Assembly (NCBI GenBank): GCA_026708565.1
Contig: JAPOUR010000005.1
Location: 32,273-96,272, forward strand
Length of the DNA: 64,000 bases
Origin: Candidatus Dadabacteria bacterium
Lineage (GTDB): Bacteria; Desulfobacterota_D; UBA1144; Nemesobacterales; Mycalebacteriaceae
Direction: 5' to 3'
Shown in pieces: positions 5,213-43,288 of the stretch; position 1 is the first letter of the stretch; every line of letters starts with the position of its first letter. Made by a program: the position numbers and the translations under genes. The notes beneath the pieces are model-generated. The model saw only the letters and a program-made list of their open reading frames with translations, did not search any database and was not told the origin of the DNA.

Positions 5213-6508
5213 ATGGCAGAAAAATCGGAACAAAACCTGAAAAAATCCGCGCTTGAGTATCACAGGAAAGAGAGGAAGGGAAAACTTGAGGTTATCCCCT
5301 CAAAGCCGTGCGCGACACAGTGGGACCTTTCCCTCGCCTACTCTCCGGGAGTGGCCGAGCCGTGCAAAGAGATAGAAAAAGATCCTGACACCGCTTACGA
5401 ATACACCAACAAGGGCAACCTTGTGGGCGTGGTTTCCAACGGAACGGCGGTTCTGGGCCTCGGCAGCATAGGGGCGCTTGCGGGCAAGCCGGTAATGGAG
5501 GGCAAAGGGGTTCTGTTCAAAAGGTTTGCGGACATTGACGCTTACGACATAAACATAAACTGCTCCGACCCCGACGAGTTTATAAGAATCGTTGAGAGCC
5601 TTGAGCCGACTTTCGGCGGCATTAACCTTGAAGACATAAAAGCGCCGGAATGTTTCAAGATAGAGGATGAGTTGAAAGAGAAGATGGACATCCCCGTCTT
5701 TCATGATGACCAGCACGGAACGGCGATCATATCCGCCGCCGGGCTTCTCAATGCGTGTGAGTTGACGGGCAGAAACATTGAAGACCTTACTATGGTTTTC
5801 AACGGCGCGGGCGCGTCCGCAATCGCTTGCGCGGAGTTGTTTGTCTCTCTCGGCGTGAAGCGGGAAAACATAATAATGTGCGACAGCAGGGGCGTAATCT
5901 ACGAAGGGCGCAAGGAGGGGCTGAACCCTCAGAAAGAGCGTTTTATCGTAAAGACCAAGCACCGCACTGTTGAAGACGCGATGAAAGGCGCGCAGTGTTT
6001 TGTGGGCTTGTCAAACGGCGGAGCGGTAAGTCAGGATATGGTGAGAAGCATGGACGCAAACCCCATTATATTCGCCATGGCGAACCCCGACCCGGAGATT
6101 TCATATCCGGATGCAAAAAGCGCGAGAAGTGATGATGTAATCATGGCGACCGGAAGGTCTGACTACCCCAATCAGGTGAACAATGTTCTCGGTTTCCCGT
6201 TCATATTCCGGGGCGCTCTTGATGTGAGGGCGCGTTCCATAAACGAGGAGATGAAAATTGCGGCGGTCAGGGCGCTTGCGGCTCTGGCGAAAGAGCCCGT
6301 TCCCGACAGTGTTATAAAGGCGTACGGCGGAAGCCCGATAGAGTTTTCTCCCGATTACATAGTGCCCAAGCCGTTTGACCCGCGCGTTCTTCCGTGGGAG
6401 TCCGCGGCGGTGGCGCAGGCGGCAATTGAAACCGGCGTTGCAAGAGTGAAGATAGACACGGCGGAATACAAAAAGTCGCTTGAAGACAAGATTCAAGACC
6501 AACTTTGA
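5213..6508 (+). CDS. NAD(P)-dependent malic enzyme (short MaeB-type, no PTA domain)
   Basis: Conserved [28 protein letters not shown] and [10 protein letters not shown] motifs. Confidence 0.85.
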
Positions 6509-7149
6509 ATTTTCAAGCCGTCATCTTTGACATGGACGGGGTGCTCATAGACAGCGAGCCCCTGTGGGAAGAAGCGGAAATAAAACTGCTCAAATCGGAG
6601 GGCGTTCGTTACGACCCTCTTTTCAGGGACAAGGTTGTCGGACTGAGCCAGATTGACTCGTCAAAACTGATTATCCGGGAGTTCGGGCTGAACTGCTCCC
6701 CCCAAAGTCTGATAGAGCGGAGGATGGAGATCCTTCTCGGCATTTATGAGGAGCGTCTGTCAATGTTTGAGGGCGCAAGGGAGGCGATTGAAAGATTCAG
6801 AGGCGGCGGGTTGAAAACCGCTCTTGCGTCCAGTTCGCCCATGAGGGTTATAGCGTATGTGCTTGAAAAGTTTTCGCTTGGGACCCTGTTTGATGCGGTG
6901 GTGTCGGGCGATTGTGTGGAAAACGGAAAGCCCGCGCCCGACATTTATTTGCTTGCGGCTGAAAAGATTGACATTGCGCCCCGCTTTTGCGCGGCGGTTG
7001 AGGACTCGCCGCGCGGGGTTGAGTCTGCGGCGGATGCCGGGATGTTTTGCGTGGCAATTCCCGACCCGCGCTTGAAAGCGGATGAGTTCGGCAAGTGCGG
7101 GGCGGTTTGCGGGAAGATATCGGAGGTTGAGGGTGTGCTTGGGTTTTGA
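6505..7149 (+). CDS. HAD-IA family hydrolase (beta-phosphoglucomutase-like)
   Basis: Motif [17 protein letters not shown] motifs downstream. ATGA overlap with the malic enzyme gene. Confidence 0.75.
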
Positions 7150-10135: not shown

Positions 10136-12336
10136 TTAACCCTCGCCAACCGATGCACAAACTGCCGCGCCTCTGTGACCGAAGGCGTATAAAACCTCGC
10201 CCTGCTCGGTCGCCCGTGCCCGACCTTGATTGAATAAGCATAAGACGGAAGCGCCGAAAACATATCCTCATCCGTAACATCATCCCCCATTGCAATCGCG
10301 CAATCCCACCCGCCGCCTGAAAACCACGGGAGAACACCCGCGCCCTTGTTGACCGACAAATCCCCCACCTCAACAATCTTGTTTCCCTGCGTTACCCTGA
10401 CATTGAGATTTTGCACCATTCCGGCGAGCGCCTCGTTAATCTCCCCCACCCTCACAACCGCAAGCGCGGGGTCAACCTTTCTGTAATGCCACACAAGAGA
10501 ATAGTTTTTTTCCTCCACAAACGAGCCGGGAGTTCTGTCGGAAAATATCTCAAGCACGGACAAAACCTCTTTTTTCCAACCCGGCGTTTCGGGAGAAGTG
10601 CGCCGCCATTTCCCCCCGTCTCTTATCCACGCGCCATGCTCGGCAATGATGCAGTTGCTCACTTTCCCAAGCCAGCGGGAGAGGGTTTTTCTGTCTCTGC
10701 CGCTCACTATCACAAGTTTGATTTTCGGATTCGCGGCAACGGCTCGCAGACTTTTTAATATCTCATCATCGGGCTTTGCGTCTTCGGGGTTCTCCCTGAA
10801 AGAAACAAGCGTGCCGTCATAGTCCAGCAACACTATGGACTTTTTGCCCCTTCTTACCTTTCCGATGATTTCATCCGCCGCCCGCTTTGACAAAATCCTT
10901 GAAGACATGGCGGACTGCATGCGCCTTGTCTGCCGCAGTTTGTCCAGAAAATCGCGCGTCCACTTGGCAAGGTCGTATCTGACAAGCCGCCGCCTCATCG
11001 CCTCCATTCGCTGCTTGCGCTCCGCTGTGGGCGTCTCCAGAGCCGCGCGAAGCGCCCCCGCCGTGGCGGAAAAGTCATTCGGGTTGACTATGAACGCCTC
11101 TCCAAGCTCCCTTGAAGTGCCCGCCATCTCGCTCAAAATAAGCGCCCCCCGCCCGTCCGGGCGTGAAGCGACATACTCTTTTGCAATCAGATTCATCCCG
11201 TCCCGGACGGGGGTTATGAAAAGAACATCCGCAAGCGCGTAAAGGGAAACCATCTCCCGGAAACTGAAAGAGCGGTAAAGGTATTTAATCGGCTCCCAGT
11301 TCATTGTTCCCCACTTGCCGTTGATTTCACTCACCATCCGCTCAATTTCTGAGCGCAGAGTTTTGTAACTCTCAACATCGGAGCGCGAAGGGACTGCGAC
11401 AAGCAGAAGAACCGCCCTGCCCCGCCAGTTCGGGTTTTCCTTTAAGAACAAGTCAAACGCCTCAAGCCGCCTGTCTATGCCCTTTGTGTAATCCAGCCGG
11501 TCAATGGAAAGAATTACGCGGCAGTTCGGGGAAAAAAGGCGCGACTTTTTCCTGATGCTGTTTTTCACGGACTCCAGTTTGAGGGCGGAGGAAAACTTTT
11601 TCACATCCACGCCCATGGGGAACATGTCCGCTTTGACAAGGCGGGAGCCGACATTGAAAACGCCCATTGAGTTTTCAATTCTCTTGATTCGCCTCACGCT
11701 CTCTGAAAAATGCCGCACATAGTCAAAGGTGTGAAAGCCCACAAGGTCCGCCCCTAACATGCCGTCAAGGATTTCCGCCGCGCCCGGAAGCATTCTGAAA
11801 ATTTCGGAGGAAGGGAAAGGTATGTGAAGAAAGAACCCGATCTCGGCATCGGGAAGCCGCTCCCTCAAAAGCGAGGGAAGAAGCATCAGGTGGTAGTCGT
11901 GAACCCATATTGTGTCATTCCCGTCCGCCACTTCAAGAACGGCTTTTGCAAACTTTTTGTTCACCTTCCGGTATGCGTTAAAAAAGTGTTTGTCATATTC
12001 GGCAATCTGAGGGAAGTAGTGAAAGAGCGGCCAGAGGGTTGAGTTGCAAAAGCCGTTGTAGTAACCCTCGGTCTCCGCATCATCCAGAAAAACGGGATGA
12101 AGGCCGGGCCCAAGCAGCCGCTTTATCTCTTGCGTCCGCCCGGGGCTCATTCCGGAAGACGAAACGCCGGGCCAGCCCACCCACACGGCGTCTGCGCCGA
12201 AGTTCGCGCCGCCGATGCCCGTGGCAACCCCGCCTATGTTGCGCTTGAGGGAAACTCCCCCCGCGCCGGTGTTCGCCGCGCCAACCTTTGCGGAGAGGGG
12301 CGGGCGGTTTGAGACTGTGATTATTTTTCCTGCCAT
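10132..12336 (-). CDS. otsA: Bifunctional trehalose-6-phosphate synthase / trehalose-6-phosphatase (OtsA-OtsB fusion)
   Basis: N-terminal GT20 OtsA domain (IITVSNRPP...). C-terminal HAD TPP domain (SIVLLDYDGTLV). Start taken at MAGKII to avoid overlap with the divergent tlpA-like gene. Confidence 0.85.
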   Translation of the reverse strand: MAGKIITVSNRPPLSAKVGAANTGAGGVSLKRNIGGVATGIGGANFGADAVWVGWPGVSSSGMSPGRTQEIKRLLGPGLHPVFLDDAETEGYYNGFCNSTLWPLFHYFPQIAEYDKHFFNAYRKVNKKFAKAVLEVADGNDTIWVHDYHLMLLPSLLRERLPDAEIGFFLHIPFPSSEIFRMLPGAAEILDGMLGADLVGFHTFDYVRHFSESVRRIKRIENSMGVFNVGSRLVKADMFPMGVDVKKFSSALKLESVKNSIRKKSRLFSPNCRVILSIDRLDYTKGIDRRLEAFDLFLKENPNWRGRAVLLLVAVPSRSDVESYKTLRSEIERMVSEINGKWGTMNWEPIKYLYRSFSFREMVSLYALADVLFITPVRDGMNLIAKEYVASRPDGRGALILSEMAGTSRELGEAFIVNPNDFSATAGALRAALETPTAERKQRMEAMRRRLVRYDLAKWTRDFLDKLRQTRRMQSAMSSRILSKRAADEIIGKVRRGKKSIVLLDYDGTLVSFRENPEDAKPDDEILKSLRAVAANPKIKLVIVSGRDRKTLSRWLGKVSNCIIAEHGAWIRDGGKWRRTSPETPGWKKEVLSVLEIFSDRTPGSFVEEKNYSLVWHYRKVDPALAVVRVGEINEALAGMVQNLNVRVTQGNKIVEVGDLSVNKGAGVLPWFSGGGWDCAIAMGDDVTDEDMFSALPSYAYSIKVGHGRPSRARFYTPSVTEARQFVHRLARVK

Positions 12337-29481: not shown

Positions 29482-32235
29482 ATGGCGGCGCTCACAAAAC
29501 GTTCCGTGCTTGTCAAAGGCGCGAGGGAGAACAACCTCAAAAACATAGACGTTGAAATCCCGCCGGAAAGTTTGACTGTGATAACGGGGCTTTCCGGTTC
29601 GGGGAAATCGTCTCTCGCGGTGGACACCATCCACGCCGAAAGCATGAGGAAATACATACAGTGCCTGTCCACCTACACAAGGCAGTTTCTGGACAGGGTC
29701 GCCCGCCCCGATGTTGACTCCATTGAAAACCTCCCCCCCTCCATCTCCATAGAAAACAGAAACCGCGTTCAGAACAACCGCTCAACACTGGGAACAACAA
29801 CCGAGATTTACGACTACCTCCGCCTGCTTTTCGCAAGCGCGGGCGAGACCGTCTGCCCCGGCTGCGACGGGCGCGCAACTGAGCACTCCGCCCGGTCTGT
29901 CGCGAAAACCCTGGCATCCGGATACAAGGGCCGGGCGGCGCTCATTATGTTCAAGCCGGAGGAAAATGAAACGGCGCAACGCCTGCTGAAAAAAGGGTTT
30001 GTCAGGGCGCTCACAAGATCGGGAAAGGTTGAGAGGATTGAAGACGCCGGAGAGATTGAAAACTTTTCGTATGTTGTTGTTGACAGAGTAAACATCACGG
30101 ACAAACCGCTTTCAAGGGTCAGCGGGTCGGCGGAGACGGCTTTCAGGGAAAGCCCCTCCGTTGTGGTTCAGCCGGAGGGCGGAAAACCGCTCTCTTTCAC
30201 AAAGGGGCTTTCCTGCGAGAAGTGCGGACTGACTTTTCCGAAACCGTATCCGGCGATGTTCTCGTTCAACAGCCCGCGAGGGGCGTGCGGAAACTGCAAC
30301 GGGTTTGGAAACAGACTTGAAACAGACCGCTCTCTTATTGTCCCGGACGGCGCGAAAACCTTGCGCGGCGGGGCGGTTGAGCCGTTCACCTACCCTTCAT
30401 ACAGATTTGCCAACAGAAAACTTATTCAACTCGCGGAAGCAAACGGCGTAAGCCCGGACGTTCCCTTTGACAGCCTCCGCCCCGAAGAAAAGGAAACATT
30501 GTTTCAAGGCGACGGCTCGGTCGGCGTGGCGCGAGGCGGCGTAATGGGGTTTTTCAAAAAAATAGAAAAGAAAATCTACAAGGTTCAGACAAGGGTTTTT
30601 CTCTCACGTTACAGGTCAACTGTTTTGTGCGGCGCATGCGGCGGAAGCAGATTGCGCCCAGAAGCCGATGCGGTCAAGATCGGGGGACTCTCAATAAGCG
30701 AGATGACGGAAATTCCCGTGGGCGAACTGGCGGAGATGTTTTCCGGAAAATCAATATCAAAAATTATTTCAAAAACAGGCCGGGCGGTCGCGGCGGATGT
30801 GTTGAAAGAGATACGCGGGCGGCTCTGTTTCCTTCGCGATGTGGGGCTTGAATACCTTGCCCTCTCCCGCCTCACGCGCACGCTTTCGGGAGGCGAGGCG
30901 CAGAGAGCCGCGCTTGCCTCTCAAATCGGCTCCGGCCTCACGGACACCCTGTACATACTGGATGAGCCTTCCGTGGGTCTGCACCCTCAGGACACGCGCA
31001 ACATGGTTTCGGTAATTAAAAACATTCGCGACAACGGCAACACGGTCGTGGTGGTGGAGCACGATATGGACATTATAAAAGAGTCCGACCACATAGTTGA
31101 GATAGGCAGGGAAACCGGAGAGGAAGGCGGAAATCTGGTTTATCAGGGGCCTCCGGGGAAAATGGTTTCCCGCGCGCCGCATTCCTATACGGGCCTCTAT
31201 CTTTCGGGGAAAAAAACCATCACGCCCCCGAAAAGAAACGGGAAAAACGGCGGCGGGAAAATAACCGTCCGAAAAGCGAGAAAAAACAACCTCAAAAATA
31301 TCAACGTTTCCATACCGCTCGGAACTCTCGTATGCGTAACCGGAGTTTCGGGCTCAGGCAAAAGCTCCCTGATAAAAGATGTCCTGCACAAAAACCTCCT
31401 AAACGGGACGCGCGAGACGGCGGATTGCGACGCCGTTTCCGGAGCGGAAAAAATCACGGACACGGTAATGCTTGACCAGTCTCCCATAGGGAAAAATTCG
31501 CGTTCAAACCCCGTTACCTATGTGAAGGCGTATGACGCAATACGCAAGGCGATGGCGGGCTCGCCCGATTCGGTGGAAAAAGGGCTTTCCGTGTCGGACT
31601 TCTCCTTCAATATCACGGGCGGCAGGTGCGAAATGTGCGAGGGGGAGGGAATACAAAAAGTGGAGATGCTGTTTCTTGCGGACGTGTCCGTCACGTGCCC
31701 GCAATGCGAGGGAAAGAGGTTCAAAAACAACGTTCTTTCAGCAAAGTTGCGGGGCAAAAACATAGATGATGTTTTGAACATGACAGTAAGCGAAGCGGCG
31801 GGGTTTTTCTCCGGCTCCGCGGCGGTCACAAAGAAATTGCAGGGGCTCACGGATGTCGGACTCGGATACCTGAGGCTCGGCCAGTCGGCGACAACGCTCT
31901 CCGGAGGAGAAGCGCAGAGGATGAAAATAGTGCGCGAACTGTCAAGAAAAGACGGTCGCGGCATTCTGTATATTCTGGACGAGCCGTCAATCGGCCTGCA
32001 CACCGAAGATGTGAGGCGGTTGCTTGAGGTTCTTGAAAAACTTATCTCGGCGGGAAACTCCGTAATTGTGATTGAGCACAATCCGGAGATAATCAAAACT
32101 GCGGCTCATGTGATAGACCTTGGCCCCGGAGGCGGAAAGCGCGGAGGGGAAATCGTGGCGCAGGGAACACCCCGGCAAGTGGCAAAAAACAAAAAATCTC
32201 TGACCGGCCGTTTTCTCAAGCCCTATTTTCAGTGA
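29482..32235 (+). CDS. uvrA: Excinuclease ABC subunit A
   Basis: Two ABC modules ([21 protein letters not shown]). Zinc-finger Cys clusters. Start at the MAALTK ATG at 29482. Confidence 0.9.
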
Positions 32236-33068
32236 TGAAAAAATATCTCTCTTTTGTGAAGTTTGAACACACCCTGTTTTCTCTTCCGCTGGTGGCGGCG
32301 GGCGCAATGCTGGCGGCGGGCGGCGTTCCGGACGTTCGCATTGCGGCGCTCATAGTTGCGGCGGCGGCGGGGGCGAGAACCGCTGCAATGGCGGTAAACA
32401 GAATTGTTGACGCCGCCGTGGACGCGGCAAATCCCAGAACCGCGGGCAGGGAGATTCCGGCGGGAAAAATAAGCCGGGGCGAGGCGTATGCGGTAACAGG
32501 CGCGGGCCTTGCCGTGTATTTCGGGGCGGCGTATATGATATGCCCTTTTGTGTTCCTGCTCTCCCCGTTTCCGGTGGCGGTGTTCTCCGCCTATCCTTAT
32601 ATGAAAAGGATAACGCCGCTGTGCCACCTCGGAGTCGGGTTCGCGCTTGCGCTTGCCCCGGCGGGCGGCTGGCTCGCCGTGCGGTGCGCGGCGGATGAAA
32701 TTTTTGCGCCCTTGATGCTCGGCCTGTTCACACTGTTGTGGGTGTCGGGGTTTGACGTCATCTATTCAACCGCCGATGAGGATTTTGACAGGGCAAACGG
32801 GTTGCATTCGGCGGCGGTCTCTCTCGGCGCGCGGGGCGCGCGGCGGGTCTCGGCGGCGCTTCACGCAGGCGCGGCGATTCCTCTGGCGGCGCTGCAAATA
32901 CTGGAATTCGGCGGGAATATGTTTTCCCTCGCCGCCCTTGCGGCCGTCTGCGCCGTTCTGGCGGCGGAGAGCAGAGCGGCGGACAACATCGGCTTTGCCT
33001 TTTTCAAACTGAACGCGGTTTGCGGGGCGCTTGTTTTAGTTTTCATTCTGTGCGGGATATACTTGTGA
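32235..33068 (+). CDS. UbiA-family prenyltransferase (MqnP-like)
   Basis: Multi-TM UbiA fold. 1-nt overlap with the uvrA stop. Confidence 0.7.
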   Translation: MKKYLSFVKFEHTLFSLPLVAAGAMLAAGGVPDVRIAALIVAAAAGARTAAMAVNRIVDAAVDAANPRTAGREIPAGKISRGEAYAVTGAGLAVYFGAAYMICPFVFLLSPFPVAVFSAYPYMKRITPLCHLGVGFALALAPAGGWLAVRCAADEIFAPLMLGLFTLLWVSGFDVIYSTADEDFDRANGLHSAAVSLGARGARRVSAALHAGAAIPLAALQILEFGGNMFSLAALAAVCAVLAAESRAADNIGFAFFKLNAVCGALVLVFILCGIYL

Positions 33069-33081
33069 GAGAGGTCGGGAT

Positions 33082-33633
33082 TTGAGAACAATAATCGGCA
33101 TAACCGGGGCTTCGGGGGCCGTCTATGCGGTTGATTTTCTGAGACGCTGCGAAGGGGAGAAGTATCTGGTCGCAAGCAAATGGGGCAAAGCCGTTCTGAA
33201 CGAGGAAATGGGGGTCAAAATGGAGGAACTCGGACAGTGGGCGGATAAAACCTTCAGCGATTCCGACCTCGCCTCGCCGTTTTCATCGGGAAGCAATCAC
33301 TTTGACTCAATGGTCATAGTTCCCTGCTCCGTTTCCACTCTTGCCAAAATCGCAAACGGAATAGCCGACACTCTCATAACAAGAATCGCCCAGGTGGCGC
33401 TCAAGGAAAAGCGCAAACTGATTATAGCGTTAAGGGAGACGCCGCTCAGCACCGTCGCCCTTGAGAACGCCGCCCGCCTCTCATCCTACGGGGCGACAAT
33501 AATGCCCGTAAGCCCGCCCTCTTATACCGGGGCAAAAACCGCCGAAGAACTCGCGCGCGCCTTTGTGGACAGGCTCATTTCCGTCTCGTCAAACAAACAT
33601 GCGGACGGCTGGCGAAGCGGTGAACTTGAGTGA
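33082..33633 (+). CDS. ubiX: UbiX-family flavin prenyltransferase
   Basis: IIGITGASGAVYAV flavoprotein motif. Confidence 0.85.
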   Translation: MRTIIGITGASGAVYAVDFLRRCEGEKYLVASKWGKAVLNEEMGVKMEELGQWADKTFSDSDLASPFSSGSNHFDSMVIVPCSVSTLAKIANGIADTLITRIAQVALKEKRKLIIALRETPLSTVALENAARLSSYGATIMPVSPPSYTGAKTAEELARAFVDRLISVSSNKHADGWRSGELE

Positions 33634-35399
33634 GCAAAACCTTCTCAAATCTCCGCGAATACATAGCGCACCTTGAAAAGAAAGGCGACCTGATGAGGGT
33701 TCAAACCGCCGTTGACCCCGAACTTGAGATTACGGAAATTGCCTCGCGCGAGATGAAAGCCGGAGGCCCGGCGTTGTTGTTTGAAAACGTGAAGGGCTCG
33801 CGCTTTCCCCTCGCAATAAACCTTTTTGCCTCGGAGGAGAGGATCAGAACCGCTCTCGGCGGCGACCCCAAAGAGGTGGGCGAGGAACTTGTGGAGATTT
33901 TTGAAAAGGTAAACCCGCCCTCGGTGAAGGGCGTATTTTCCGCGCTGCCCAAACTTACGCGCGCCCTCTCAATGAGAACATCAAACTCGTGGACGCGCGC
34001 GCCCGTTCTGGCAAACAGCGAGGAGGCAGACCTCTTGAGCCTGCCCGCCATAAAGTGCTGGCCGAAAGACGGCGGAAGGTTTATAACCTTCGGGCTCGTA
34101 ATAACTCACAGCCCCGTTTCAGGCTCAAGAAACATGGGGCTTTACCGCCTTCAGATATACGACTCAAAAACCACCGGCATGCACTGGCATCCCCACAAGG
34201 GCGGCGCGGCTCATTACGATGAGGCGGAAAAACTGGGGCGCGACCTTGAGGCGGCGGTTGTCCTCGGAGGCCACCCCGCCCTGATATTCAGCGCCATCGC
34301 CCCGCTGCCCGAAGGGGTTGATGAAGTGGCGTTTTCGGGATACCTCCGCCGCAGGGCGGTCTCCATGACAAAGGGGCGGTCTGTTTCCCTGAAGATTCCC
34401 GCAAATGCCGAGATGGTAATAGAGGGCGTAGTTCCGAAAAACAAGCGCCGCACCGAGGGGCCGTTCGGCGACCATTTCGGCCATTATTCAATGCAGGCGG
34501 ATTTTCCCGTCTTTGAGGCAAAAAGCATGAGTTTTGCGGACGGGGCGGTGTTTCCCGCCACAGTGGTGGGCAAGCCGCCGCAGGAGGATATGTTTCTCGG
34601 AGTCGCGGCGGGAGAGATGTTTTCCCCCCTGATACGCATAATCCATCCCGAAATAAAAGAGATGTGGGCGTGCCCCGAAGCGGGCTTTCACAACCTTCTG
34701 TTTGTGAAGGTGGACGAGAGGTATCCGAAAAACGCGGTCAAATCCATGCTCGCGCTCTGGGGAACGGGGCAGCTTGCGCTCACAAAATGCATTGTTACCG
34801 TGTCGGGCGATGTCAACCTGCGGGACTTCTCCGCCGTTACAAGGGAGATAGGAAAACACTTTGACCCGAAAGACGATTTTGTCCTTATTCCGACCGCGCC
34901 TCTTGACACGCTTGATTTCACAAGCGGAAGGTTCAACGTGGGAAGCAAGATGGGGATCAACGCCGTCAAAAAAACCGGCGCGCCGCCCGCGCAGTATTGC
35001 TCTTCCGTTCCCGACCCAAGGGAAAAACACCCTGAAATAAAAGACTGGCGGTTGCTTGAGGGCGGTTTTTTTGTCGCCAAACTCGCTGCCCGCCCCGGCG
35101 GCCTTGCGAAACGCCTTTTTGAAACCCCCGGCTTTGAGAACATCAGAATCGCCGTCTTTGTGAGCGCCGACATAGACGTCCATAACGACACCGAACTGAT
35201 ATGGGGCATATTCACGCGGTTTGACCCGCGCCTTGACATTGAGTTTGAAAAAACATCCCCCGTGGGCTCGGACATAAAAAGGGAGGGGCGCATGGCAATA
35301 GACGCCACAATCAAGGAGTGGTATCCTGAAGTAACCGAAATGACGCCGGAAATTCAGGCAAAGGTGTCAAAGAGTTGGAAAACAGACCGGAACTCATAG
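33630..35399 (+). CDS. UbiD-family (prFMN-dependent) decarboxylase
   Basis: UbiD-family N-terminus and core. 589 aa. Confidence 0.8.
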   Translation: MSKTFSNLREYIAHLEKKGDLMRVQTAVDPELEITEIASREMKAGGPALLFENVKGSRFPLAINLFASEERIRTALGGDPKEVGEELVEIFEKVNPPSVKGVFSALPKLTRALSMRTSNSWTRAPVLANSEEADLLSLPAIKCWPKDGGRFITFGLVITHSPVSGSRNMGLYRLQIYDSKTTGMHWHPHKGGAAHYDEAEKLGRDLEAAVVLGGHPALIFSAIAPLPEGVDEVAFSGYLRRRAVSMTKGRSVSLKIPANAEMVIEGVVPKNKRRTEGPFGDHFGHYSMQADFPVFEAKSMSFADGAVFPATVVGKPPQEDMFLGVAAGEMFSPLIRIIHPEIKEMWACPEAGFHNLLFVKVDERYPKNAVKSMLALWGTGQLALTKCIVTVSGDVNLRDFSAVTREIGKHFDPKDDFVLIPTAPLDTLDFTSGRFNVGSKMGINAVKKTGAPPAQYCSSVPDPREKHPEIKDWRLLEGGFFVAKLAARPGGLAKRLFETPGFENIRIAVFVSADIDVHNDTELIWGIFTRFDPRLDIEFEKTSPVGSDIKREGRMAIDATIKEWYPEVTEMTPEIQAKVSKSWKTDRNS

Positions 35400-36481
35400 A
35401 GAAATTGTGCGCCGACAAGTCTCTGCTTCCCGTGCTCAGGAAGGTGGAGGCGTCCGAGCGGCTGTCTTTTGAAGACGGAGTGCGGCTTCTGGAAACGGAT
35501 GACTTGCACACGGTCGGAATGATGGCGGACATGGTAAAGCGCAGAAAGAGCGGCGACAAGGTTTATTTCGTGGTCAACCGCCACATAAACCCGTCCAATA
35601 TATGCGCCATATCCTGCAAGTTCTGCGCGTTTGGAAAAACCAAAAAATCCTCCGATGCCTATGAGATGACAACGGAGCAGATATTGGGGCTTCTGCATAG
35701 CGACCTCAAGGAGGTTCACATAGTCGGCGGATTGCATCCCGACTGGGAATTCAGCCATTATCTGAACATTGTCCGGGCAATAAGGGAGGCGCAGCCCTCC
35801 TGTCACATCAAGGCGTTTACCGCCGTGGAGATAGACTGGTTTTCGGAGATAAGCGGCAAGCCGGTTGAGCGCGTCCTTGAGGATTTGACCGCCGCCGGTG
35901 TAAACGCGCTTACGGGCGGCGGGGCGGAGATACTGCACCCGGAGATCAGAAAGAAAATCTGCGCCCCGAAAACGGTCGCCACAAAATGGGAGGAGATTCA
36001 CAAACTGGCGCACGGCATGGGCATACCGACAAACGCCACCATTCTCTACGGCCATCTGGAAAAGCCGTTTCACGTCATTGACCATTTTGAGAGGTTGAGA
36101 AACCTTGAGGATGAGGCGCCCGGATTCTTTGCGTTCATTCCCGTTCTTTTTCAGCCCGCAAACACCGGATTGAAAGACATTCCGCCCTTCCCCGCCTCTT
36201 ACGATATGAAGATTCACGCCGCCGCGCGTCTGTTTCTGGACAACATCCCGCACATAAAGGCGTATTGGATAACGCTCGGTGAAAAGGCGGCGCAAGTCGC
36301 CCTTCACTACGGCGCGAGTGATGCGGACGGCACGATAATGCGCGAGAAAATCATTCACGACGCCGGAGCGCCCTCGGAGTTGGGACACAGCAGGGATTTT
36401 ATGGTGAATATGATTAAGAATGCGGGGTATGTGCCGGTTGAAAGGGATGCGCTGTATAATGAGTTGAGGGTGTATAATTAG
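35375..36481 (+). CDS. Radical SAM menaquinone (futalosine pathway) enzyme, MqnC/MqnE family
   Basis: CAISCKFCAF (Cx3Cx2C). MqnC/MqnE/CofH-like layout. Confidence 0.75.
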   Translation: MENRPELIEKLCADKSLLPVLRKVEASERLSFEDGVRLLETDDLHTVGMMADMVKRRKSGDKVYFVVNRHINPSNICAISCKFCAFGKTKKSSDAYEMTTEQILGLLHSDLKEVHIVGGLHPDWEFSHYLNIVRAIREAQPSCHIKAFTAVEIDWFSEISGKPVERVLEDLTAAGVNALTGGGAEILHPEIRKKICAPKTVATKWEEIHKLAHGMGIPTNATILYGHLEKPFHVIDHFERLRNLEDEAPGFFAFIPVLFQPANTGLKDIPPFPASYDMKIHAAARLFLDNIPHIKAYWITLGEKAAQVALHYGASDADGTIMREKIIHDAGAPSELGHSRDFMVNMIKNAGYVPVERDALYNELRVYN

Positions 36482-36482
36482 A

Positions 36483-37223
36483 ATGTTGCAGAAACTGACT
36501 GGCTACTATAAACGCAAAGGGATATTATCAACCTCTTTCACTTGTAAACACGAAGAAATCTGCAAAGGAGATTGTAAAAAGTTCACGGGGCCAAAATCGG
36601 CTTTTGTGAGTAGCGGGTATGTACGAAACGAACTCCCTAGGTTACTGTTTCTATCTTTGGATTCTGGCAAGGGAAAACCTGATGACAGAGAAAGACTTCC
36701 TTCCGCAGTAAGAAAACAAGAAGAAGTAGAAAGAGACATTAACTCATTGCACAAAGGCAGGCATTGGTATAGAACCCACGAACTTGCGTGGATTATTTTC
36801 AGAAAGTTCAACCGCGAACTGGAGTTATCTCAAGCAAAGCATTTTTTTGCTCACGCAAACTCTGCAAAGTGTTGCCTAAATAAGAAGCATAAGAGAAAAG
36901 CGGATAAGCGGTTGTTTGATAACTGTAGGGAATATATGGACGGGGAGTTGAAAATTCTTGCTCCCGACATACTGGTTACTCAGGGCAATGAAGCAGAACA
37001 GGCGGTTCTCCCACTCATAGAGAAGAAGAAACAGATTGACAGGTTCGCTTCAGAGTCCGTTTTGCACGGAAGGCGCATTTTCTGGCTTCATACTTGGCAT
37101 CCGAGTAATTATGGGAAGTTTTACAAGCAAAAAGAAAAATGGGATTTTTATGCTGAAAAAATCCACTCATTCATTTCAAACTTACAAACAACTCAGGATT
37201 CAAATACAAAGGAGAAATTCAAA
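36483..37223 (+). CDS. Uracil-DNA-glycosylase-superfamily-like protein, AT-rich, no in-frame stop
   Basis: Layout LFLSLDSG...NSAKCC...NCREY...ILVTQGNEAEQ...WLHTWHPS resembles UDG family 4/5. GC drops sharply here. The frame runs without a stop into the next gene. Confidence 0.4.
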
Positions 37224-38309
37224 ATGACCACCAAAAAACTCATTAACATCAACGACTTCCACCGAGAAGCTAAAGAAAAACTTCCGCAAATGTTTTACGA
37301 CTATTACGCCTCCGGCGCGCACGATGAACTCACCCTTTCAGACAACAGCGCGGCGTATTCCCGCATACGTCTCCGCTACAGGGTGATGGTGGATGTGTCC
37401 GACCGCGATATGTCCGTTGAGATTCTGGGGCAGCGGTGTTCAATGCCCATACTGGTCGCTCCGACTGCGTTTCACGGGCTCGCGTCTCCTCAGGCGGAGA
37501 TTGCCACCGTCCGCGCCGCAAGCGAGGCGCAAACGCTTATGATACTCAGCACCCTGTCAAACACCGCCCTTGAAGATGTGAAGAAAGAGGCGGAAGTCCC
37601 GCTTTTCTTCCAACTGTATGTTTACCGCGACAGAAGCGCCACCGCCGAACTCGTGAAAAGAGCGGAACAAGCGGGCTACAAGGCGATTGTTGTTACGGTT
37701 GACGCCCCTATTCTCGGAACTCGCGAGCGCGATGTGCGCAACGACTTCCGCCTGCCCGAAGGGCTGACAATCAAAAACATGACCGCCGCGCAACTTGAAA
37801 AGATGAGCGAAGACACCGGCTCCGGACTCGGCAACTACTTTGCCTCCTCCATAGACCCCTCCCTTTCATGGAAAGACATTGAATGGCTCAAAGGCATAAC
37901 GGAACTTCCCGTTCTGGTAAAAGGCGTGGTTCATCCCGAAGACGCAAGAATTGCCCTGAAAAGCGGCGCGAGCGGGATTGTGGTCTCAAACCACGGCGGA
38001 CGCCAGCTTGACACAAGCCCGGCAACCATAGACGCCCTGCCCGACATTGCCGAAGCGGTGGACGGCGGCGGGGCGGTGCTCGTTGACGGCGGCGTGAGGC
38101 GGGGAACTGATGTTTTCAAGGCGCTTGCCCTCGGCGCGGACGCCGTTCTGGTGGGAAGACCTATTCTGTGGGGGCTCGCGGCGGACGGGCAAAACGGCGC
38201 GCGGCAGGTTCTTGAAATCCTCAGGGCGGAGTTTGACAAGGCAATGATGCTCTGCGGATTCCGCTCCGCCGCCGAGATAAGGGAAAAGGGAAAACAGATA
38301 CTGTTTTGA
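37224..38309 (+). CDS. FMN-dependent alpha-hydroxy-acid dehydrogenase/oxidase (L-lactate/glycolate oxidase family)
   Basis: Strong RBS AAGGAG before the ATG at 37224. TIM-barrel FMN motifs (SNHGGRQLD, VDGGVRRGTDV). Confidence 0.8.
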   Translation: MTTKKLININDFHREAKEKLPQMFYDYYASGAHDELTLSDNSAAYSRIRLRYRVMVDVSDRDMSVEILGQRCSMPILVAPTAFHGLASPQAEIATVRAASEAQTLMILSTLSNTALEDVKKEAEVPLFFQLYVYRDRSATAELVKRAEQAGYKAIVVTVDAPILGTRERDVRNDFRLPEGLTIKNMTAAQLEKMSEDTGSGLGNYFASSIDPSLSWKDIEWLKGITELPVLVKGVVHPEDARIALKSGASGIVVSNHGGRQLDTSPATIDALPDIAEAVDGGGAVLVDGGVRRGTDVFKALALGADAVLVGRPILWGLAADGQNGARQVLEILRAEFDKAMMLCGFRSAAEIREKGKQILF

Positions 38310-38321
38310 CCGCGCCGCAAA

Positions 38322-38669
38322 CTACAGCAGATTGTATATCAGCATGAATATGTAGCGCATGTGGGGGCTCTTTTTCTGAGCCGCCAGTTTGGGTTGCAGA
38401 TTGTTTATGCCGCCGAACAGGGTCTCATTGTAGGCCCCGGCAACCACACTGAACTCTGCAAAGTCAATCAGGGGTTCATCCGGAACAGAAAGCGGGCGCA
38501 CATTCCTCTCCGCCGCTGTAATTCTTATGCCGTCTCCGTCAACCTTTGCGAGAAACCATCTCTGCGAGTCCGGAAGCATATACTCAATGCCGCCGCCAAC
38601 CTTCTGCTTGAGCAACTCCCATTCTTTTTGCGGCGGGTCGCCGAAATCTATTCTTCTGTCTTTAAGCAC
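38322..38669 (-). CDS. Hypothetical protein
   Basis: ORF with host-like codon usage. No recognisable motif. Confidence 0.3.
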   Translation of the reverse strand: MLKDRRIDFGDPPQKEWELLKQKVGGGIEYMLPDSQRWFLAKVDGDGIRITAAERNVRPLSVPDEPLIDFAEFSVVAGAYNETLFGGINNLQPKLAAQKKSPHMRYIFMLIYNLL

Positions 38670-42013: not shown

Positions 42014-42283
42014 ATGCCCACAATATCGGTCTTTTACGGAATAGTTATCAGGATGTTCTTCCGTGACATAGGAAAACATCACACTCCGCACATACACGCA
42101 GAGTATCAGGGACAGATGGGAGAGTATTCAATTGAAGACGGGGGGTTGCTTTCGGGTAAACTGCCTCCTAAGAAGCATAAACTTGTTGTTGCGTGGATTG
42201 AAATTCACAAGGAAGATTTAGCGGCAAACTGGAAACTTGCCATGAATGGGGAAAAACCGTTGCCAATCAAGGGGCTGGAATAA
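42014..42283 (+). CDS. DUF4160 domain protein
   Basis: MPTISVFYGIVIRMFFRDIGKHHTPHIHAEY is typical of DUF4160. Confidence 0.6.
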   Translation: MPTISVFYGIVIRMFFRDIGKHHTPHIHAEYQGQMGEYSIEDGGLLSGKLPPKKHKLVVAWIEIHKEDLAANWKLAMNGEKPLPIKGLE

Positions 42284-42528
42284 TGACAATCAGGGAAGTG
42301 TTACCTAAGAACAACTACAAACTTTACATTGTAGCCGAAGACGGCAGGTCCGGGCTGTTTGATGTTTCGGCCTACTTGAATCTGGAAGCGTTTGAAGAAC
42401 TGAAAAATGCGGAAAGTTTCCGCAAAGTCAGAAGTGGCGGATATTTCATTGAATGGGACTGCGGAGCCGACTTGTGCGCCGACACCATTGAAGCGGAGTG
42501 GAAACCAACGCCACAATCTGCTGGTTAA
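42283..42528 (+). CDS. DUF2442 domain protein
   Basis: Small DUF2442-like protein. Forms the common adjacent pair with DUF4160. Confidence 0.6.
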   Translation: MTIREVLPKNNYKLYIVAEDGRSGLFDVSAYLNLEAFEELKNAESFRKVRSGGYFIEWDCGADLCADTIEAEWKPTPQSAG

Positions 42529-42538
42529 AGTGTAGTGG

Positions 42539-43288
42539 CTATTTCTTCTTCAACAACTGCTGAATCCTCTGTCTTGCTCGTTGTTGACCCATTCTAAGAG
42601 CCTTGTGAACCTCATCTTTATTTTCCCAATTATAAATTCGTCCAGATCTACCGGCTAACCCATAAACGGTGTAACCTTTGATGTCTCGCTCTCGCACATC
42701 AGCACCATTGGCAATAAAAGTAACTATAACATCTGGATTTGGTTCATAAGGGTTAGTTATTGCCTCCATCAGTGGCGTTTTTCCTGCATCATCTTTTGCA
42801 TCCACATACGCCCCTGCTTCAAGAAGTATAATGATAGTTTCGGGCAACACTTTGTGGGAAGTAATGCCCGCATAATGCAAAGGCGTACCACCATATACAT
42901 CCCTTGCTTTGACATCCGCACCACTGTCAATTAAGGACTGGATAACTTGAGGATTAGGATTGGCAATACCTTCCATTAATGCCGTTGAAGCGTCCGAATA
43001 CTGTCCCTTGGTCTTGGCGTTGACCTCTACACCTTTCTTGACAAGGAATTTCACAACATCGGGATAGGGGGTATACTTTGCTGCGTAGAACAAGGCAGTC
43101 TTCCCATCTCTATCTTTCGCCTTTACTTTCGCCCCTCCCTTTATGGCTTTCTTAATATCTTCAAGCGTTGCGGTTTCCATAAACTGATAGTCCAGCAACT
43201 TATCTTTCTTTGTTGCTTCCGCAAGTGATGAAAGCCCAAAGAGGACAATTAGGGCAATGGCAAGTAGTCTTTTCATAGCAAACCACAC
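42539..43288 (-). CDS. Ankyrin-repeat protein with signal peptide
   Basis: Signal peptide MKRLLAIALIVLFGLSSLA. About 5 ANK repeats. AT-rich. Confidence 0.75.
   Translation of the reverse strand: MWFAMKRLLAIALIVLFGLSSLAEATKKDKLLDYQFMETATLEDIKKAIKGGAKVKAKDRDGKTALFYAAKYTPYPDVVKFLVKKGVEVNAKTKGQYSDASTALMEGIANPNPQVIQSLIDSGADVKARDVYGGTPLHYAGITSHKVLPETIIILLEAGAYVDAKDDAGKTPLMEAITNPYEPNPDVIVTFIANGADVRERDIKGYTVYGLAGRSGRIYNWENKDEVHKALRMGQQRARQRIQQLLKKK

Follow-up and report, generated by a model that had tools for sequence, protein, structure and literature searches.

Does an open reading frame (ORF) that joins a DNA glycosylase-like domain to a metabolic dehydrogenase encode a bifunctional protein, or has a stop codon been lost between two neighbouring genes? 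The question is raised by a locus in a 64,000-nucleotide stretch of contig JAPOUR010000005.1 from a Candidatus Dadabacteria bacterium (assembly GCA_026708565.1), called the window here and numbered from its first base. A single + strand ORF of 608 codons (36483..38309) opens with an ATG at 36483, closes with a TGA at 38307-38309 and has no internal stop. By Pfam, residues 1-247 form a uracil-DNA glycosylase (UDG)-superfamily part and residues 248-608 a full-length FMN_dh domain. The original prediction, made from the sequence itself, had described the fused frame and the marked AT-richness of its first part, and had offered as explanations a foreign insertion that lost its stop (nonstop or pseudogene), a genuine fusion, or a sequencing or assembly error. 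The compositional claim is borne out: GC content is 0.41 at 36483-37193 against 0.536 in the upstream radical-SAM gene, 0.572 in the dehydrogenase and 0.538 in the entire window, GC at third codon positions is 0.43 against 0.68 and 0.66 in the two flanking genes, and the AT-rich portion makes up the first 741 bases of the ORF. The exact 608-amino-acid (aa) product has no match on record, and JGI metagenome contigs gave none either when scanned twice, once with the junction (both alleles allowed) and once with the conserved stretch just upstream. We conclude with good confidence that the ORF reflects stop loss in an accessory UDG-superfamily gene gained by horizontal transfer: the gene occupies a variable spot, and its naturally segregating stop-loss allele reads, by chance of frame, into the dehydrogenase. 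The read-through is a real but ordinary strain polymorphism.

The position of the loss was located in alignments with sibling assemblies, whose contigs were reached through the exact 361-aa and 368-aa protein records of the dehydrogenase and the radical-SAM gene, with 10 further contigs reached through a neighbouring 115-aa protein. In five of these assemblies (ERZ23500915, L001/L005; SRR10996909, L002/L006; ERR5002185, L003; ERR5003464, L004; ERZ21788760, L082) positions 37194-37196 read TAG and an extra C follows 37221, while the window has CAG (Gln) on the + strand at the same codon; the assignment of this stop-loss site also agrees with the C-termini of the protein family. The original observation that no stop separates the two parts thus comes down to CAG in place of TAG. 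The extra C puts the TAG out of frame with the dehydrogenase ATG. In L001, the UDG-like gene is a separate 237-aa ORF that ends in SNLQTT and a stop, 31 nt ahead of the out-of-frame dehydrogenase start, and the more divergent L082, with 104 differences from the window, carries the same TAG-plus-C allele and has the gene called as a 237-aa UDG protein. The corresponding segment of the window (36483..37193, + strand, 237 codons) is therefore the entire gene of the sibling strains, and its unfused stop lies 12 nt ahead of a ribosome-binding site (RBS) region that all share. Haplotypes A and C have TAG with the extra C; CAG without it is found in haplotype B, represented by ERZ23497894 (L085, sample SAMN13943202) and ERZ23500905 (L086, sample SAMEA7724011).

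The dehydrogenase gene (37224..38309, + strand, 361 aa plus TGA) retains its own start signals inside the fused frame. An AAGGAG motif at 37209-37214 lies 9 nt ahead of the ATG at 37224, and orthologues with 83-87% identity, together with all sibling assemblies, share a 361-aa product beginning MT(T/N)KKLININDFH, which identifies ATG 37224 as the native start. The identical 361-aa protein is recorded in 6 contigs, and 361-aa orthologues are found in L010 and others. These results agree with the original description of a GC-rich gene with a strong RBS and an ATG of its own. The read-through linker, DSNTKEKFK (37197..37223, + strand), is the former intergenic spacer and holds the dehydrogenase RBS. 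Over 37190-37226 the stop-less allele consists of CAG together with TTCAAAATG; its predicted product runs from the UDG-like C-terminal helix through QDSNTKEKFK into the whole dehydrogenase, and the peptide predicted across the junction is ...SNLQTTQDSNTKEKFKMTTKK....

Gene callers treat the locus unevenly. For L086 the call is a partial fused ORF of 478 aa that spans UDG-like part and dehydrogenase alike, and for an allele of the window type a caller would probably report the 361-aa dehydrogenase only. In L001, the record at 5712-5972 (window 36936-37196) is just an 86-aa C-terminal fragment of an intact 237-aa ORF. AT-rich cargo genes such as this one are easily under-annotated.

We next consider how the UDG-like part occurs elsewhere. 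A search of 5.8 billion proteins returned 636 homologues; the best 120 have 53-64% identity over 88-100% (typically 94%) of the query, and those listed are nearly all stand-alone proteins of 238-267 aa, most with a precomputed PF03167 match. The top homologue comes from 'Candidatus Mycalebacterium sp.' and others from metagenome-assembled genomes of Dadabacteria and Gammaproteobacteria. A profile search of 1.84 billion cluster representatives gave 701 clusters at E<=1e-3 and 234 at E<=1e-30, most of those listed being 240-260 aa long. The search for homologues of the N-terminal part alone, proposed with the original prediction, therefore yields stand-alone proteins, mostly of 240-260 aa. No UDG-FMN_dh fusion was found among the 636 homologues or the best 150 of the 701 representatives, and the longest proteins were 398 aa among the 120 listed homologues and 495 aa among those 150 representatives. 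Fifteen extended proteins were checked, 5 by alignment and 10 by Pfam; what they add is an N-terminal extension, DUF4268, another UDG domain or nothing recognisable, and FMN_dh was present in none of them. To judge from these comparisons, the 608-aa ORF is not a conserved fusion protein, nor a designed bifunctional enzyme, and the option of a genuine natural fusion is left without support. Among the extended members, P0124 has a C-terminal DUF4268 and P0153 a second UDG domain in tandem, and several others in a set that also includes P0010/P0014/P0026/P0068 and P0067 have N-terminal extensions of about 120-150 aa without a Pfam match.

The gene's genomic position identifies it as accessory cargo. 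The AT-rich insert at 36482..37208 fits gene-tight between the radical-SAM gene, an MqnE/CofH-like gene of 368 aa (35375..36481, + strand; Pfam Radical_SAM and CofH_C), and the dehydrogenase. Three assemblies of the same population, L079 (a 1.2-Mb contig), L081 (GCA_026708365.1) and L083, are 98.4-98.5% identical to the window and carry a BsoBI endonuclease directly upstream of the dehydrogenase, with no UDG-like gene there; a methylase is called in L081, and similarity to all three resumes at 37209. In the 72 related Dadabacteria loci with a UbiD/radical-SAM pair, the radical-SAM gene is never followed by a UDG-like gene. The four closest species (L007-L010), whose radical-SAM proteins are 87-90% identical, show how variable the spot is: L010 has the synteny of the window with a 446-bp AT-rich spacer (6108-6553) in place of the UDG-like gene, L009 (6108-8570) has an N6/N4 methylase and a BsoBI-type endonuclease, L007 (6105-10385) has the same two genes together with GmrSD_N and RiboL-PSP HEPN proteins, and L008 is rearranged. 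In both L007 and L009 the endonuclease gene adjoins the dehydrogenase. No convincing remnant of UDG-like, restriction endonuclease or methylase genes was detected in the L010 spacer. The locus illustrates neatly how, at a gene-tight variable spot flanked by core genes, a UDG-fold gene and a restriction-modification (R-M) system replace each other within one population at 98.4% identity. AT-richness, absence from the 72 related loci, R-M genes in siblings and a sibling TAG at the CAG position together support the first of the original options, a foreign insertion that lost its stop.

The cargo flanks contain no target-site duplication, terminal inverted repeat or attC-like element, and insertion by a transposon, as an integron cassette or by an integrase is therefore unsupported. 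The simplest mechanism, and we infer the most likely one, is that homologous recombination between conserved flanks exchanges the cargo. A tblastn match of the UDG-like protein at window 10324-10575 was discarded as weak and spurious, as it falls inside an opposite-strand trehalose-phosphate-synthase-like ORF.

The direction of the change can be read from two comparisons. Homologues of the UDG-like protein stop 3-9 residues past a conserved Y(S/A)..I..F(I/V) helix, whereas the window protein continues for 16 residues to the dehydrogenase Met; these family C-termini argue that a TAG near 37194 would be the ancestral state. The R-M siblings read TTCA-AAATG ahead of the dehydrogenase start and lack the extra C, which marks that base as derived in haplotypes A and C. 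It follows that, where the extra C is absent, a single T-to-C change in the TAG suffices for an in-frame fusion.

If the stop-loss allele is the best description of the junction, is the gene it affects still intact? Loss of the stop could be one step in the erosion of an old insertion, and several features would fit a decaying pseudogene: the gene is accessory, AT-rich and dispensable, siblings have other cargo in its place, only the short fragment noted above was annotated in L001, and a poor RBS precedes an ATG that lies 1 nt past the TAG stop of the radical-SAM gene. Against this, no frameshift or internal stop was found in the UDG-like gene in eight assemblies, all 51 invariant columns of the family are retained, and a confident AlphaFold2 (AF2) model was obtained. 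The ratio of nonsynonymous to synonymous substitution (dN/dS) between haplotypes is 0.18-0.20, a value based on few substitutions, and is close to the 0.21 of the dehydrogenase. We therefore regard the pseudogene alternative included in the original prediction as unsupported and improbable. The corresponding ratio for the dehydrogenase of haplotype A versus B was set aside as invalid, as the L086 sequence loses frame at a run of N.

A second alternative is that an error of sequencing or assembly has erased a stop or frameshift that keeps the two genes apart in the real genome. The window does depart from the five sibling assemblies precisely at the junction. Over about 15 kb it shows 19 differences from L001/L005, and 16 of them lie inside a 116-bp patch (37106..37221) that departs from haplotypes A and C by 15 substitutions and a 1-nt indel; both fusion-creating changes fall within it. 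The patch matches haplotype B. L085 and L086 are identical to the window over 37063-37297, including all 15 substitutions, the CAG and the absence of the extra C, and differ from it at 33 sites between 36890 and 39399, which makes them a distinct strain, 98.4% identical. The window is thus haplotype A throughout except for a haplotype-B patch of 116-235 bp, a mosaic of the kind that a de Bruijn assembler produces if it settles each strain bubble independently of the others, and the 608-aa product is not on record elsewhere.

However, the junction recurs base for base, with all 16 patch variants, in two assemblies from other samples and a distinguishable strain, and only 27 nt separate the two critical positions, which are thus linked on single reads. 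Synonymous divergence (dS) between alleles is 0.45 in the patch but just 0.09 over the 230 bp that precede it and 0.02-0.05 for the flanking genes, and the dN/dS of the patch is 0.12. Fifteen substitutions in 116 bp with such a synonymous excess are features of an old allele, not of errors, and the values point to import of a diverged allele rather than a recent mutation. Because two independent assemblies of another strain carry the identical stop-less junction, this comparison identifies it as a natural allele, present in at least one strain that was sampled twice. It is thus very unlikely that the junction arose by sequencing error, as the original prediction had considered; the mosaic in the window may still be an assembly chimera of mixed strains in a metagenome or, equally, a short recombination tract. 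For the junction itself, we give an artefact hardly any credence. A diversity-generating origin of the patch was rejected, as transitions and transversions are mixed and affect all bases, are mostly synonymous and reach into the spacer. In L085 and L086 a run of 10 N lies inside the dehydrogenase, at the equivalent of window 37394-37403, and L086 is one base shorter; their dehydrogenase frames are unreliable for this reason, and the junction region is clean.

That the fusion is a selected functional protein, a glycosylase tethered to an FMN dehydrogenase, is similarly far-fetched: although the frame is open, both domains are intact, the allele persists in at least two samples and FMN_dh enzymes are known to tolerate N-terminal fusions (flavocytochrome b2 is the established example), the architecture is absent from the homologues and listed cluster representatives described above, unfused alleles are found in five assemblies of the population itself, other strains of which have no UDG-like gene at all, the linker is a former 5' untranslated region with its RBS retained, and no functional logic joins the two activities.

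Taken together, these data favour a stop-loss allele that would have arisen as follows. An accessory, stand-alone UDG-superfamily gene would have been acquired as a cassette between the end of the quinone operon and the dehydrogenase gene, at a spot where cargo is most likely swapped by homologous recombination in the conserved flanks. In one haplotype TAG would have become CAG, and the 30 nt up to the dehydrogenase ATG put the UDG-like frame in that of the dehydrogenase. Ribosomes that initiate at the UDG-like ATG would then make a 608-aa UDG-linker-dehydrogenase protein, while free dehydrogenase would still be made from its intact RBS and ATG. In the window the allele sits as the short patch on the background of the other haplotype, brought there by a recombination tract or by strain mixing in assembly. 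Since the FMN_dh family tolerates N-terminal fusions, the fusion need not be harmful; nothing suggests selection for it, and the allele is probably neutral or mildly deleterious.

The locus resembles other nonstop read-through fusions of adjacent bacterial genes in its single stop-codon substitution, its tightly spaced, co-directional, in-frame genes and its polymorphic state. Compared with typical stop-loss fusions there is nothing unusual about it; the downstream gene retains its RBS and start inside the new linker.

Several points weigh against this interpretation. Both haplotype-B sequences, L085 and L086, are short (2.6-kb) scaffolds made with a single assembly pipeline, they contain the N run in the dehydrogenase, and they cover just the last 106 codons of the UDG-like gene. 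The exact mosaic of the window, a haplotype A backbone with a B patch, is found in no other assembly and could be a chimeric consensus. The direction from an ancestral TAG is based on homologue ends and not on a rooted tree, and both the fused protein and the balance between its two starts are predictions from DNA. For annotation, the stop-loss reading means that the 608-aa "fusion" should not be carried forward as a bifunctional enzyme, and that it should not be discarded as an error either. The by-products of most interest are an uncharacterised UDG branch and the swap of a glycosylase gene for an R-M system at one site.

What kind of protein does the UDG-like gene encode? The Pfam UDG model PF03167 scores 34.6 bits against a gathering cut-off of 24.3, over residues 116-222 and in the C-terminal half of the model only, and a sequence profile matches Sulfolobus tokodaii family-4 UDG (4zbx) at E=9e-6, again in the C-terminal half. 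An AF2 model built with 64 sequences has a pLDDT of 88.2 and a pTM of 0.89. In Foldseek searches of the PDB with this model, the top match was the S. tokodaii enzyme 4zby (E=3.9e-5, TM 0.51/0.60, 16% identity, probability 1.0), followed by UdgX and then by the Thermus and Thermotoga family-4 enzymes, and all 46 best matches were UDG, UdgX, TDG or SMUG1 structures. By profile and predicted fold, the protein is a member of the UDG superfamily.

Within the superfamily the protein is nearest the iron-sulphur branch of family 4 and UdgX, and is a member of neither. It is modelled with the same alpha/beta fold, built on a four-stranded parallel beta-sheet, as family 4 UDG (S. tokodaii 4zbx/4zby, Thermus thermophilus 1ui1, Thermotoga maritima 1l9g/1vk2) and UdgX (6ail and others), and shares with family 4 an HPS-like motif B. 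Four invariant cysteines, C21, C27, C130 and C148, are putative ligands of a 4Fe-4S cluster by their placement, which resembles that of the family-4 ligands; C130 and C148 align with cysteines of the S. tokodaii enzyme. In the motif-B-like sequence H206-P-S208, which aligns with TYHPAA of 4zbx, H206 and P207 are invariant and S208 is the residue found in the window. Identity to family 4 and UdgX enzymes, however, is only 13-16%, the protein exceeds them in length by about 50 aa and has additional helices, and its motif A reads L-S-L-D-S-G. Motif A is GE(A/G)PG in family 4 and GEQPG in UdgX, which also has a KRRIH loop (PMC4787834); neither GEQPG nor KRRIH occurs in the sequence. Scores fall far below the cut-offs of the family 4 models (TIGR00758, 22.1 bits vs 125.3; NF040953, 16.7 vs 250) and of UdgX (TIGR03914, 22.8 vs 189.95). 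The original assignment to a family 4/5-like UDG thus stands at the level of superfamily and fold; for family 4 it fails, both at motif A and at the NCBIfam cut-offs.

The motif-A-like segment L57-S-L-D60-S-G62 forms part of a strand-loop, LFLSLDSGxG, that is invariant in 64 sequences. D60, which by position would match the Asp of the family-1 GQDPY motif, is a candidate catalytic residue. These features make a monofunctional DNA glycosylase, equipped with a 4Fe-4S cluster and a motif A of its own, the probable identity of the protein. It represents a sizeable uncharacterised branch of the UDG superfamily and is a candidate for work on substrate, iron-sulphur cluster and anti-phage activity.

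We next asked whether genomic context bears on a role in repair or in defence, and found mixed evidence. In favour of a defensive or mobile role, BsoBI R-M, GmrSD and HEPN genes take the place of the gene at this site in relatives of the window, and the gene is AT-rich in three of four genomes including the window; in the three others, the GC content of the family gene and of its flanks is 0.40 vs 0.52, 0.38 vs 0.59 and 0.47 vs 0.50. Against such a role, a different clade of Dadabacteria has the gene in a conserved pyrF-UDG-MBL-fold synteny (L091 6001-6789; L092 4001-4795; L093/L094 4001-4777), and the family is 79-85% identical between species. There, its ATG overlaps the pyrF stop by 1 nt (TGATG), which suggests translational coupling and a resident role in that clade; the pyrF-linked copy bears the signature of a resident, vertically inherited gene. 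Also against a defensive or mobile role, no relatives of the UDG-like gene were found in IMG/VR, INPHARED phages or PLSDB plasmids, and a phage or plasmid origin is therefore unsupported. Nor did the UDG-like part match PADLOC (2023 library) or PHROGs, and there was no Brig entry among the Foldseek PDB matches.

Brig1 is an antiviral UDG-fold glycosylase whose best structural match is also S. tokodaii UDG (PMC11078745), and Brig2 is likewise antiviral, with homologues enriched in AT-rich regions (bioRxiv 10.1101/2025.10.29.685425). The UDG-like protein resembles them in being a stand-alone UDG fold with S. tokodaii UDG as its best solved match; its gene, as described for Brig2 homologues, is AT-rich relative to the host genome, and it occupies a site that in relatives holds R-M, GmrSD and HEPN genes. 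A difference is the pyrF-linked housekeeping context in another clade, which suits a resident repair gene. The default reading is that of a repair-type glycosylase acquired as a xenologue. More speculatively, and with rather less than even chances, it might belong to an undescribed and widespread family (about 700 clusters at 50% identity, with LSLDSG including a conserved Asp, and four Cys) and act as a stand-alone Brig-type antiviral glycosylase that excises a modified phage base and is exchanged with BsoBI R-M, GmrSD and HEPN cargo at a defence hot spot between core metabolic genes of sponge-associated Dadabacteria. If so, the stop-loss allele would have arisen as a side effect of fast turnover there.

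The dehydrogenase belongs to the FMN-dependent alpha-hydroxy-acid dehydrogenase/oxidase family (PF01070 FMN_dh, E=3.5e-138, 460.8 bits, model positions 1-345 of 350). It resembles LldD, lactate oxidase and glycolate oxidase in its full-length profile match and, at 361 aa, has the length of its orthologues. It differs from these enzymes in that, in the window, a UDG-like ORF precedes it in frame, and it falls under every NCBIfam equivalog cut-off, so that its predicted assignment is to the family only.

Upstream, the radical-SAM protein is kept at 64-90% identity in the 72 Dadabacteria loci, and the exact 368-aa protein is recorded in other assemblies. By gene order in sibling contigs, it closes a quinone operon composed of UbiA-UbiX(flavoprotein)-UbiD-radical-SAM. 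In the window, the region 31225-36481 encodes a UvrA-like ABC ATPase, a UbiA prenyltransferase, a UbiX-type flavoprotein, a UbiD decarboxylase and the radical-SAM MqnE/CofH-like protein, with neighbouring ORFs overlapping or a few bases apart (the UbiD/radical-SAM overlap is 25 nt), and is a biosynthesis cluster for quinone, either futalosine-type menaquinone or a related compound. From ubiA onward all genes are co-directional with tiny gaps, and no sigma-70-like promoter or terminator was found between the UDG-like gene and the dehydrogenase; co-transcription is therefore likely.

Directly downstream of the dehydrogenase, on the opposite strand, lies a 115-aa ORF (38322-38669) without a Pfam match, which has 47-79% identity in several Dadabacteria loci and is identical in 15 contigs. 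Farther along, at window positions of about 42053-43180 (placed from L001 10830-11957), a toxin-antitoxin-like DUF4160/DUF2442 pair is followed by an opposite-strand ankyrin-repeat protein. Ankyrin proteins, together with sample names that point to sponge metagenome studies, suggest that the host is a sponge-associated member of the Dadabacteria.

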